From assembly GCF_030013595.1 (NCBI RefSeq), contig NZ_CP122768.1: a stretch of 64,000 nt of DNA. One strand, 5' to 3'. Origin of the DNA: Escherichia coli (GTDB taxonomy: Bacteria; Pseudomonadota; Gammaproteobacteria; Enterobacterales; Enterobacteriaceae). A program made the position numbers. The stretch's first letter is position 1; every line of letters begins with the position of its first letter. Positions 21,001 through 24,000 of this stretch are shown piece by piece.

Positions 21001-24000
21001 ACACGGGATGTTATTCATGCAGATGAAACGTCCCTGAGGCTCCTTGATACCCGGAAAGGCGGTAAATCCTGCTCCGGCTGGCTGTGGGCTTACGTCAGCG
21101 GAGAAAGAGTAAGCGTCAACGGAGCACCGTATTGACGCTTATTTATTGGTGAGTACTACGTTCCATGGCAGGAGTTCATCAACTCGGTTGGAAGGCCATT
21201 CTGGCAGTACGCTCAGGATATGGCGCAGATACGCTTCCGGATCGATACCGTTCAGACGGCAGGTGCCGATCAGCCCGTACAACAGTGCTCCACGCTCGCC
21301 GCCGTGATCGCTGCCAAAGAACATAAAGTTTTTCTTTCCGAGACAGACTGCACGAAGCGCTCTTTCCGCAGCATTATTATCCGCCTCCGCCAGACCGTCA
21401 TCACTGTAATAACAGAGGGCATCCCACTGATTCAGTACATAGCTGCACGCTTCGCCCAGTCTGGATTTTTTCGACAGCGTACCATTCTTCTCCACCATCC
21501 ATTCATGCAGTGACGTCAGTAACACTTTGCTTCGCTGCTGCCTGACGGCAAGACGCTCTGACTCCGGTAATCCCCGTATTTCATCCTCGATGGCGTACAG
21601 TTCACTGATTCGCTTCAGGGCTTCTTCTGCCGTCGCACTTTTGCTGCTGATGTATACATCGTGGATTTTTCGCCGGGCATGGGCCCAGCACGCAACTTCT
21701 GTCAGTGCACCACCTTCACGTTCTGCACTGAACAGCCGATCGTAACCGCTGAACGCATCCGCCTGCAGGATACCCCGGAAGGGACGAAGGTGTTGTACCG
21801 GATGTTTTCCCTGCCTGTCTGGTGAGTAGGCGAACCAGACCGCCGGTGGCTCTGATGAGCCCGCATTCCGGTCATCCCGGACATACGTCCAGATGCGTCC
21901 TGTTTTTGCCTTTTTTCTGCCCGGTGCCAGCACTTTTACTGGTGTGTCGTCAGTGTGAACCTTGCGGGTGTTCATCACGTAACGGTACAGGGTATCATTC
22001 AGCAGAGTCATTAACTGACAACATGCGTCAACCCAGTTGGAGAGTAATGCCCGGCTCAGTTCGATGCCCTGGCGGGCAAAGATTTCACTCTGACGATACA
22101 GTGGCAGGTGTTCGCAGTATTTTCCCGTTAACACGCGGGCAAGTAATCCGGAGCCCGCGATGCCGCGCTCTATCGGGCGGGACGGCGCTGGCGCTTCAAC
22201 TATACAGTCACATTTTGTACAGGCTTTTTTTACCCGAACAGTGCGGATCACTTTCAGGGCGCTACTCACCAGTTCCAGCTGCTCAGCACTGACTTCCCCC
22301 AGATAATCCAGCTCACTGCCACACTCCGGGCAACAACTTTCTTCAGGCTCCAGACGGTGTATTTCACGGGGAAGATGTGCCGGTAACGGACGACGATGAC
22401 GTGACTGTCGCAACTGGCGGGGAACCTGCGGGTCATCCTCACGCCCACTGTAACGATCGCTTTCCTGTTCGCGTTGTTTCAGTTGGGCCTCAGCCTGTTC
22501 AACCTCACGCTGCAGTTTTTCAGAACGGGTACCGAACAACATCCGGCGCAGTTTTTCTATCTGGGCCCTCAGATGTTCTATTTCCCGCTCCTCCTCTTCG
22601 ATCTTTTCCTCGGCACGTGCCAGTGCAGAGCGCAGGAAGGCCTCCGTCTCTTCAACCAGACTCAGTTGCTGATCTTTCTGACGGAGGGCTTCAGCCTGCT
22701 CAGAGAGCAGCCTTTCCAGCTCAGTGATACGAATGAGGTATTTCCGACTCATGACCGTTTTTATAATCCGGCCATGACATTTTTACAACATTGTCAGTGC
22801 ATTAAGGCGGGATGTTTTGGGCTGACGCCAGTCCAGTTTATCGAGGAGCATTGCCAGCTGCGAGCGGGTAATGGATACCTTACCGTCACGCACCGCAGGC
22901 CAGATAAACTGGCCTTCCTCCAGACGTTTGGTGAACAGGCACAGACCATCAGCATCAGCCCACAGAATTTTAATCGTGTCACCCCGTCGGCCGCGAAAGA
23001 TAAACAGGTGACCGGAGAAGGGGTTCTCATCCAGCACATGTTGTACCTGTTCTCCCAGACCGTTGAAGGATTTACGCATATCAGTAACGCCGGCAACCAG
23101 CCAGATTCGAGTGCCTGATGGGAGCGAGATCATCGTCCCCTCCCGGTCAGTTCACGGATCAACACCGTGAGCAGCTCTGGTGAAGGATTTTCCAGCGTCA
23201 TGTTACCGTGGCGGAACTCAACTTTACAGGAACTGGCACTGACTGTGCTTTGTGAAGGAGTGGATAAAAGCGGAGTAAGAGCCGCCATAGGCTCTTTCTG
23301 CTCATCAGGCGTTATCTCAACAGGTAATAATTCAACGCCAGCGCCAGAAGAGGTTGTTACCGGAAGACGCCGCGATATACGCCTTTCGTTCTGCCAGAGC
23401 CTGAGCCATTTGAACAGGAGGTTATCATTGATATCGTGTTCCCGGGCAATACGGGCAACAGAGGCTCCTGGTTGTGAAGCCAGTTTAACCATTTGAAGTT
23501 TAAACTCATTTGAAAATGATCTGCGGGGTTCTGAGGATAATATTTTCTGTTCCATAACAGGTGTCCACTAGTTGAAAAGGTGGGCACCTACGTTACCAAT
23601 ACTGGCTTAATGGCTACATACGGCGGTCAGTTTACGCTTACGAGAAAGAAGCGGTCCGCCGGTCGTCTGTTTTGACTCGCAGACCGGACGGGCCCTCAGA
23701 TATCCTGAGGCCTGGCTGCAGGGCTGGTGTGGCGGTACGCTGGTGAGTGACGGATACAGCGTGTACAAATCTCTGGCGGATAATGACCCCGGTATTACAT
23801 CTGCCTGTTGCTGGAGCCACGCAAGGCGCGGTTTCGCAAATCTGTATAAGGCCAGCAGGGAGCCCCGTGCAGCCATGGCGCTGAGAAAAATCGCGGGTCT
23901 TTATCGCATTGAGAAGTTCATCCGTGAACGTCCTGTGGAAAAAATACGGCAATGGCGACAACGGTATTCCCGGCCGATAGTGAATGACCTGTTTGCCTGG

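Follow-up and report, generated by a model that had tools for sequence, protein, structure and literature searches.

A nested IS682 insertion in the transposase gene of a second IS66-family element on a ter island of Escherichia coli

Introduction

Why does one IS66-family insertion sequence (IS) sit within the transposase gene of another, and does this tell us how the family chooses its targets? The questions are raised by the window, the whole 64,000-nucleotide stretch of Escherichia coli contig NZ_CP122768.1 analysed here, in which an earlier note had described an IS66-family element (element B) splitting the tnpC gene of a second such element (element A). To our knowledge, the chemistry of IS66-family transposition and the role of TnpA and TnpB in it are poorly understood. 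The nest itself is already annotated in RefSeq, which places IS682 between the two halves of a tnpC pseudogene.

The window covers an iha-ter-ure island of Shiga-toxin E. coli of the SpLE1/OI-43/48 type, in the order iha, terZABCDE(F), terW-side biosynthetic genes, IS66 cluster, ure and terminal integrase, with element A located just downstream of terW. SpLE1-like ter elements carry IS66, IS3 and IS110 transposase genes (PMC8193136). IS DNA accounts for approximately 20% of the window's island portion, so that the prior expectation of hitting an IS here is high.

Results

Element B is a complete IS66-family copy of 2,533 bp, bracketed exactly by an 8-bp target-site duplication, GAGAAAGA (Table 1). 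The boundaries and strand given for it earlier, with GAGAAAGA at both edges, are exact to the base. When the element and one copy of GAGAAAGA were removed in silico, tnpC of the surrounding, unrelated element A rejoined in frame to encode a 513-aa TnpC with all four IS66 TnpC domains in Pfam (PF03050 at E = 1.8e-90, together with the zf, LZ and C-terminal domains). The predicted rejoining of 277 + 237 codons was thus borne out, the 3' part consisting of 236 codons plus the stop. The reconstruction aligned over 3,180 bp with strain 2013C-3277 (NZ_CP027331.1) at 98.2% identity and without gaps; this strain has a terW-adjacent copy of element A with an intact 513-aa tnpC, and represents the empty site in a like island context. 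In addition, the 3' part is collinear with intact WP_000355324.1 (locus L003), and the 5' part is annotated in RefSeq as a pseudogene, 'IS66 family transposase, missing C-terminus'. The duplication and the in-frame join demonstrate that one IS66-family element has inserted within tnpC of another, as had been proposed.

Table 1. Mobile-element features of the window (positions count from its first nucleotide).
Feature	Position	Strand	Details
ISEc8-like left-end fragment	1078-1147	+	70 bp, 83% identical; ATGTAATC just before
IS21-family (ISSso4-like) left-end remnant	19343-19451	+	109 bp; repeated GATCAnnnTTTGGCATC motifs; cut off by element A
Element A, unnamed IS66-family IS	19452-24870	+	ends set from independent copies L004 and L005
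Element A tnpA	19539-19868	+	ORF, 109 aa; identical gene is IS66 family accessory protein TnpA in RefSeq
Element A tnpB	19855-20235	+	126 aa by RefSeq start, longest ORF from 19834; PF05717 TnpB_IS66, E = 5.8e-35
Element A tnpC, 5' part	20278-21108	+	277 codons; stops within DDE domain after ...LWAYVSGE
Target-site duplication, left copy	21101-21108	.	GAGAAAGA
Element B, IS682, IS66 family	21109-23641	-	IRR 21109-21132, IRL 23618-23641
IS682 tnpC	21139-22752	-	537 aa, intact; LZ_Tnp_IS66, zf-IS66, DDE_Tnp_IS66 (E = 9.6e-96), DDE_Tnp_IS66_C
IS682 tnpB	22783-23133	-	116 aa; PF05717 TnpB_IS66, E = 7.8e-37
IS682 tnpA	23130-23555	-	141 aa; PF01527 HTH_Tnp_1, E = 1.3e-14
Target-site duplication, right copy	23642-23649	.	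GAGAAAGA
Element A tnpC, 3' part	23650-24360	+	236 codons plus stop
Tandem pair of element A terminal 150 bp	24571-24720, 24721-24870	+	87% identical; IRR-like end on each
IS30 transposase gene pieces	40882-41176 and 43627 to ~43862		
ISEc8 target-site duplication	41169-41176 and 43619-43626		GCGTAATC
Element C, ISEc8, IS66 family	41177-43618	+	2,442 bp, inside IS30 transposase gene

From end to end, element B is identical (100%) to many RefSeq copies, and we take the name IS682 from the RefSeq/PGAP label; the TnpC of the identical copies (WP_000088522.1) is named 'IS66-like element IS682 family transposase' by PGAP. Its tnpA, tnpB and tnpC are consecutive on one strand, with tnpA and tnpB overlapping by 4 bp, which is the IS66-family layout, and its TnpC matches PF13005, PF13007 and PF13817 as well as PF03050 (the DDE_Tnp_IS66 hit of Table 1). 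The left edge reads GTAAGCGT and the right edge ACGCTTAC, and both ends open with GTAAGCGT, the IS66-type 5'-GTAAGCG; the terminal inverted repeats are imperfect, agreeing at 20 of the outermost 24 positions. Clean 8-bp duplications of the IS66 type were found at IS682 and at 35 related IS66-family sites among those examined. IS682 TnpC is 31% identical to that of element A and 64% identical to that of ISEc8.

Element A begins at 19452 with the IRL GTGTCGTTACGGGGAAGTCATC and finishes at 24870 with the IRR ...CGGAATATTAC, and its ends are of the form GTGTCG.../GTAATA..., not GTAAGCG. Its TnpA had no match in the Pfam search. No target duplication was found at the flanks of this copy (GCATCCTG vs TGACGACA); independent copies do carry them, TCTTCAGG at a 2,772-bp plasmid copy (L004) and GCATTAAC at an ISEc49 copy (L005). 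The terminal 150 bp, present here as a tandem pair, are single-copy in each of L003, L004 and L005. Immediately to the left lies an IS21-family remnant that is 95-96% identical to the left ends of intact or longer copies, which run on with CCAGTCACTCC... toward istA (L130, L131). All three IS21-family end copies begin at TGCAAAATGG and have differing outside flanks. Element A itself thus sits in an IS21-family left end, into which it appears to have inserted.

The exact junction between element A and IS682 was found in 520 of 5,426 complete E. coli genomes, the carriers including O157, O145, O111, O26 and O103 strains, and therefore points to a single ancient insertion that has come down with the island. 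The exact IS682 TnpC allele occupied this ter-island site in 10 of 10 contexts among the matches listed, and the exact TnpB allele in 9 of 10 places among the matches listed; at the odd place (L124), next to a group II intron, lies a relative of 92.8% identity that has no duplication. Because the insertion is a single ancestral one and its exact alleles were (nearly) confined to this site among those matches, the IS682 event counts once. The coordinates of NZ_AP018808.1 fit the window around the nest and drift by ~0.9 kb beyond ~25 kb, where they were not used.

The second nested IS66 event that had been claimed for the window is also real. Element C, whose TnpC carries the RefSeq name 'ISEc8 family', lies within a gene that RefSeq calls 'IS30 family transposase' and is flanked by the duplication GCGTAATC. 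ISEc8 and IS629 are described as drivers of small structural variation in O157 by Ooka et al. 2009, as that work is cited in PMC3271280. The ISEc8-like fragment near the start of the window is a left end only; in the reference strain a DDE transposase pseudogene is annotated near it, at a window position that is only approximate.

A GTAATCG-like target motif had been suggested as well, and it did not recur. No motif is shared among the duplications of IS682, ISEc8, L004 and ISEc49 (L005), which are GAGAAAGA, GCGTAATC, TCTTCAGG and GCATTAAC, respectively. GCGTAATC and ATGTAATC have six bases in common, and we rejected GTAATC(G) as a target motif since, in O157 genomes, GTAATC is missing from all six additional ISEc8 duplications read and from one more flank. 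The pentamer CTTTC is present in four duplications of the first 14 IS682-group sites, including IS682's own TCTTTCTC (in tnpA-to-tnpC orientation), and was dropped when a fresh set of 18 independent sites failed to reproduce it. Across 35 IS66-family duplications there was no common target sequence beyond a weak profile: the duplication base beside the IRL was C or G at 29 of 35 sites (p = 1e-4), and A or T occurred in 77% at position 3 and in 74% at position 4.

We then asked how often IS66-family elements lie inside other transposable-element genes. In a small survey, this was the case for 9 of 36 IS66-family sites compared with 2 of 34 sites of the control families IS629, IS5, IS2 and IS3 (Fisher test, one-sided p = 0.029, two-sided p = 0.046), in a sample without phylogenetic control that is heterogeneous between IS66 members; one extra control hit would raise p to 0.07. 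ISEc23 and ISEc47 were used as stand-ins because IS682 itself yields no independent target sample. ISEc23, an abundant close relative of IS682, was nested at 2 of 18 sites, like the controls, and ISEc47 at 4 of 9, with IS2 as the target in three cases. ISEc49 and the ISEc8-like (ST131-type) alleles each gave one repeated site and added little to the statistics. The nine targets were IS10, IS2 (three), IS30-family (two), IS256-family and IS110-family elements and a Tn7-like tnsB. Fragments of Tn7-like tnsB, which Pfam missed on reconstructed targets, were called by precomputed PF27135 and adjacent tnsA, tniB and tniQ, under the same assignment rule for the IS66 and control sets.

Further cases of IS66 in IS66 were seen at L017, L079 and L106, and independent ISEc23 insertions recur in or beside one IS682-like remnant. 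Within the window, all three IS66-family elements touch IS DNA: A the IS21-family end, B element A, and C the IS30 gene. Other elements insert into IS66 members too, as with IS629 in ISEc8 (L017), IS5 in ISEc23 (L035) and a group II intron within tnpC of an ISEc8-like element (L124). We found no target feature common to the elements hit, since IS2, IS10, IS30, IS110, IS256, IS21, IS66 and tnsB were entered at unrelated positions, and full-text literature searches on IS66 target choice or nesting found no report of such a preference. The suggestion that IS66-family elements prefer IS DNA is therefore partly supported: the pooled excess speaks for it, whereas the ISEc23 counts, the single IS682 event and the lack of a motif do not. 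The survey data fit active targeting and survival in neutral, IS-rich island DNA equally.

Discussion

It is likely that the nest goes back to a single insertion of IS682 into an older element A, inherited with the island, and that the nesting is passive, with no dedicated targeting of IS. An intact IS682, with tnpA, tnpB and tnpC, would have transposed once into tnpC of the older, unrelated element A in an ancestor of the SpLE1/OI-43/48-type tellurite-resistance, adherence and urease island, element A having landed earlier in the left end of the IS21-family element. The GAGAAAGA duplication would be the usual outcome of DDE transposition, in which cuts staggered by 8 bp are repaired. The insertion parts the HADET-motif portion of the element A transposase from the remaining DDE domain and would thus leave element A unable to make its own transposase. 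Many lineages of Shiga-toxin E. coli would since have received the whole stack, unaltered, as part of the island. Most probably, the nesting would reflect insertion into dead-end IS DNA without host cost, in a region that was already IS-rich. We infer this order of events, the loss of element A function and survivorship as the cause of nesting; the structure, its duplication, the empty site, the distribution and the lack of a common motif are observed directly. IS629 in O157 lies in prophage or prophage-like DNA in 62% of cases, without a sequence target (PMC3271280).

Alternative origins of the structure fare poorly. The two tnpC halves might be separate truncated copies of element A joined beside IS682 by recombination or mis-assembly, and the region has evidently been rearranged in the past, as element A is without its own target duplication and has a duplicated 150-bp end. 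Such an origin is barely conceivable, however, and is refuted by the perfect duplication exactly at the IS682 termini, the in-frame join, a reconstruction that is gap-free and collinear with an uninterrupted allele, and the presence of the same junction in 520 independently finished genomes. Homologous recombination between elements B and A was rejected because the two share no DNA similarity and their TnpC proteins only 31% identity. It is also highly improbable that a GTAATCG-like or CTTTC-like motif in IS genes drew the nested insertions, an idea that is largely refuted. The six bases shared by the ISEc8 duplication and the sequence before the fragment at 1078, the early CTTTC matches and the weak profile over 35 sites (S beside the IRL, A/T at positions 3 and 4) would favour it, but the first two signals failed in the further sites, and a profile with S at one edge and an A/T-rich centre is too degenerate to single out IS genes, having countless non-IS matches.

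The most probable of the rivals is that IS66-family transpososomes are actively drawn to other transposable elements, nesting being a property of the family. Possible routes include transposase-bound or bent DNA, H-NS-coated acquired DNA, and replication structures reached via the beta clamp, for which binding peptides are reported in IS66 TnpC and TnpB (PMC3971601). The survey excess, the position of the window's three IS66 elements in or against IS DNA, the additional IS66-in-IS66 cases and the recurrent ISEc23 insertions at one remnant are consistent with this reading. However, the sample is small and uncontrolled for kinship, its signal comes mainly from ISEc47 while ISEc23 equals the controls, and its significance hangs on a single control hit. 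The targets belong to unrelated IS families, at unrelated positions and with no motif in common, and the literature searched reports no such preference. Moreover, the control families are more active and their insertions younger, so that the same pattern would arise if selection had sieved the older IS66 insertions more strictly. A mechanism-based bias of enterobacterial IS66-family IS into or beside other transposable elements, IS66 members included, thus seems unlikely to us. In bacteria, group II introns are found for the most part within other mobile elements, and their bias is mechanistic, through retrohoming or terminator targeting. We know of no mechanism for an IS66 bias toward mobile DNA, and such a bias is not established.

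As it stands, the IS682 nest is a correctly read but ordinary structure of little importance, on an E. coli island that ranks among the most thoroughly studied. The junction can serve as a marker for SpLE1-type ter islands that is stable across lineages, related islands keeping the uninterrupted element, and the layering from IS21-family end to element A to IS682 offers a relative time line for island history. If the bias were true, the IS66 family would be 'parasites of parasites' that limit host damage, and the stack in the window (IS21 end, A and IS682; ISEc8 in IS30) would be one product of it. Should the excess of IS66-family elements within other mobile DNA prove genuine and not depend on selection, it would indicate that this large IS family chooses its targets by a mechanism not yet described.

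Compared with known systems, the locus is largely familiar. The content and order of the island are like those of SpLE1 and O-islands 43 and 48 (the ter-type 1 element), and no difference was found (PMC8193136, PMC3064760). The nearest named relative of element A is ISEc49, with ~75% DNA identity over the whole element and the IRL GTGTCGTTACGGGGAAGTCAT and gene order in common, although the right end agrees with the plasmid-type copy L004 and not with ISEc49. Element A has no specific IS name in RefSeq and, unlike the ISEc49 used for comparison, is probably inactivated here. ISEc23 (~91% identical to element B) and ISEc47 (~92.6% over the shared 2.1 kb) resemble IS682 in their tnpA-tnpB-tnpC layout, GTAAGCG ends and 8-bp duplications; within this group, only the location inside another IS66 member, fixed in SpLE1-like islands, is particular to element B. 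The ISEc8 of E. coli O157:H7 is represented in the window by element C, which, like IS682, lies inside another IS (IS30) and is flanked by an 8-bp duplication; ISEc8 differs from IS682 in its TnpC (64% identical) and is multicopy, numerous copies occupying prophage and backbone sites outside IS DNA. More generally, in nested transposable elements or 'IS graveyards', new insertions persist in already inactive mobile DNA, as here.

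An IS682 insertion inside a different IS66-family element

We found that IS682 (element B) lies within the tnpC gene of an unnamed IS66-family element (element A), and the earlier account of 21101-23649, which comprised element B, its duplication, the split host tnpC and the in-frame rejoining, matches our analysis in every detail. IS682 begins with GTAAGCGT and ends with ACGCTTAC between both copies of GAGAAAGA, and 20 of the 24 outermost bases of its terminal inverted repeats match. Many complete E. coli genomes contain copies that match it at 100% identity from end to end, and in these the transposase has the RefSeq name "IS66-like element IS682 family". 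When IS682 and one GAGAAAGA are removed, the tnpC of A reads through as a single 513-aa frame whose product has each of the four IS66 TnpC domains. In addition, this segment of the island (stiP, an aldolase gene, a DUF4236 gene, terW and then A) is found in strain 2013C-3277 with an uninterrupted tnpC of 513 aa, and the reconstructed window sequence aligns with that strain's segment over 3,180 bp with zero gaps at 98.2% identity. Together, the exact 8-bp duplication, the canonical ends and the empty site leave no room for chance or mis-assembly; IS682 in the tnpC of A is a true insertion.

Features of the IS66-family elements in the window
Feature	Coordinates	Strand	Size	Remarks
ISEc8-like left end	1078-1147		70 bp	83% identity; ATGTAATC directly before
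Element A	19452-24870	+		IRL GTGTCGTTACGGGG...; right end ...CGGAATATTAC
Element A tnpA	19539-19868			left of IS682
Element A tnpB	ends 20235			left of IS682
Element A tnpC, first part	20278-21108		277 codons	left of IS682
Target-site duplication of IS682	21101-21108 and 23642-23649		8 bp	GAGAAAGA, exact
IS682 (element B)	21109-23641	-	2,533 bp	in tnpC of A
IS682 tnpA		-	141 aa	intact; HTH_Tnp_1
IS682 tnpB		-	116 aa	intact; TnpB_IS66
IS682 tnpC		-	537 aa	intact; leucine-zipper, zinc-finger, DDE_Tnp_IS66 and IS66 C-terminal domains
Element A tnpC, last part	23650-24360		236 codons + stop	right of IS682
ISEc8 (element C)	41177-43618	+	2,442 bp	in helix-turn-helix region of IS30 transposase gene; duplication GCGTAATC

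A and IS682 share just 31% identity in TnpC, and their DNAs do not align. They are thus distinct insertion sequences, and on the same grounds the junction cannot be a product of homologous recombination. The ends of A were set by independent copies, namely a 2,772-bp plasmid copy of an A-type element with the duplication TCTTCAGG (L004; L-numbers denote comparison loci in other genomes or records) and the related ISEc49 (75% identity), with the duplication GCATTAAC. At 24571-24870 the last 150 bp of A, with an IRR-like end, occur twice in tandem (87% identity), against a single copy in islands with an uninterrupted A and in the independent element copies; the tandem end may be left over from another, related element or stem from an old duplication. 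Two adjoining direct repeats of ~49 bp (CACCCGAAGGCGT.TCTCAGA.TGCTG.AACATTGGCTGG) occupy an unannotated stretch at 25577-25675, right of A.

Order of events and inheritance

The 109 bp directly left of A (19343-19451) hold four to five GATCAnnnTTTGGCATC repeats and belong to an IS21-family (ISSso4-like) element, of which they form the left end. This left end runs on as CCAGTCACTCC... toward istA in two other records, and in the window the inverted repeat of A starts exactly there. Judging from these flanks, A is itself nested in the IS21-family element. The remainder of that element is absent right of A, and its loss accounts for the lack of a target duplication around A. An IS21-family element would thus have settled downstream of terW, A would have entered its end, with one side lost later, and IS682 would then have inserted into the tnpC of A.

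The window represents an SpLE1/O-island 43/48 type element of Shiga-toxin-producing E. coli, with iha, the ter genes, the terW-side genes, an IS cluster, the urease operon and an integrase, followed by the backbone genes phoH, efeUOB, putP and putA. Of 5,426 complete genomes, 520 contain the entire sequence of a 300-bp probe spanning the A/IS682 junction, and strains of O157:H7, O145, O111, O26 and O103 are among the genomes with a full-length identical IS682. By exact-protein look-up, 10/10 contexts of the IS682 TnpC allele and 9/10 of the TnpB allele were the same ter-island site. Since the junction is so widespread and nearly all the allele contexts retrieved are this site, the nested structure is one old event passed on with the island; neither the probe nor the allele contexts gave any sign of renewed movement of this IS682 copy.

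Insertion sites of IS66-family elements

Insertion contexts of ISEc8, two ISEc23 alleles, ISEc47, ISEc49 and one ISEc8-like allele were gathered by exact-protein look-up; ISEc23 and ISEc47 are 91% and ~92.6% identical to IS682. For each site the ends and duplication were located, the empty target was rebuilt and the ORFs round the insertion point were scanned with Pfam. Among 36 unique sites, picked regardless of their flanks, nine interrupted a gene of another transposable element: IS10 (L029), a Tn7-like tnsB (L039), IS2 orfA (L050) and orfB (L053), an IS2-like orfA (L057), an IS30-family gene (L052), IS30 (element C), an IS256-family gene (rebuilt from L023 and L024) and an IS110-family gene (the A-type copy in L004). 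Control elements treated by the same procedure gave 2/34, from IS629 (0/10), IS5 (0/8), IS2 (1/9, in IS10) and IS3 (1/7, in the same kind of tnsB as L039). The difference is suggestive but weak (Fisher's test, one-sided p = 0.029, two-sided p = 0.046); one extra control match would raise the one-sided p to 0.07. Nesting also varied by member, at 4/9 for ISEc47, 2/7 for ISEc8 and 2/18 for ISEc23, an abundant close relative of IS682 that is indistinguishable from the controls.

Several further stacks lie outside the sample, with additional IS66-in-IS66 nests among them (L017, L079, L106). ISEc8 interrupts tnpA in an IS682-like element (L017). In the Ag43-yeeR region of some strains (L079, L082-L084, L086, L088), a 2,680-bp IS66-family element with GTAACCGG... 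and ...CGCTTAC as its ends and TATGCGCC as its duplication lies in the right terminal region of ISEc49, ~50 bp from the end of ISEc49. A nanA-adjacent island of ExPEC-type genomes (L100-L109) carries a fixed hybrid of IS682-like (1-1988) and ISEc8-like (854-2442) sequence. At least three independent ISEc23 insertions, in different strains, lie in or beside this hybrid: in a DUF7828 gene (L104), at about IS682 position 875 (L105), and in the IS682-like remnant, where positions 1559-1566 form a clean 8-bp duplication (L106). At L124 (GCA_020145985.1), a group II intron with a reverse transcriptase ORF breaks an ISEc8-like tnpC, and after it comes an IS682-like copy of 92.8% identity that lacks a target duplication, another mobile-element stack.

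Two ISEc8 copies of an E. coli O157 genome (L023 and L024 in GCA_018966965.1) have exchanged half-duplications (GACATCAG...CGAAAAAC and CGAAAAAC...GACATCAG), the signature of an inversion through recombination between both copies; the IS256-family transposase gene was one of their original targets. At the iha end of the island, the ISEc8-like left end near 1077 makes one more IS-against-IS junction, since a DDE transposase pseudogene is annotated near this fragment in the reference strain.

Target sequence

No motif is shared by the duplications GAGAAAGA (IS682), GCGTAATC (ISEc8), TCTTCAGG (A-type plasmid copy) and GCATTAAC (ISEc49). A GTAATCG-like sequence had been put forward for checking as a target, and this did not hold up, GTAATC being absent from six other ISEc8 duplications in O157 genomes and from one further flank. 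A CTTTC motif, apparent in the first 14 IS682-group sites, was not repeated in 18 further sites. Across 35 clean IS66-family sites (elements B and C and loci L016-L058), a weak profile was found: the duplication base beside IRL is C or G in 29/35 (83%; C in 19, 54%), and A or T occupies positions 3 and 4 of the 8-bp duplication in 77% and 74%. The profile is asymmetric between the two ends. Target bias of this degree is common among DDE transposases, and the profile cannot single out IS genes.

Targeting or survival

The earlier note had also proposed that IS66-family elements prefer IS DNA. The pooled excess speaks for this in part at best; it is weak and heterogeneous, and ISEc23 does not share it. 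A mechanistic bias toward other mobile DNA would be moderately interesting if true, and attraction to H-NS-bound foreign DNA, or through the clamp-binding motifs reported for IS66 TnpB and TnpC (PMC3971601), are conceivable routes. We consider such a bias unlikely; passive survival in neutral, IS-rich DNA readily explains the excess. Insertions in IS DNA are neutral, and IS66 elements dwell in IS-rich islands and plasmids; IS DNA makes up ~20% of the island part of the window. Compared with those of the control elements, IS66-family insertions also seem older and less active, and hence more thoroughly filtered by selection. Passive survival fits with the lack of an excess in ISEc23, the most active member, and with the entry of other IS families and a group II intron into IS66 elements themselves (L017, L035, L124). 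It likewise fits with the report that IS629 in O157 is concentrated in prophage-like DNA without a sequence target (PMC3271280).

The A/IS682 locus can be explained without any preference for IS targets. This nest is an ordinary nested insertion sequence, already known, and present and annotated in hundreds of public genomes. The island around it is already well described, and published descriptions agree with its content and had noted IS66, IS3 and IS110 transposase genes there (PMC8193136; PMC3064760).
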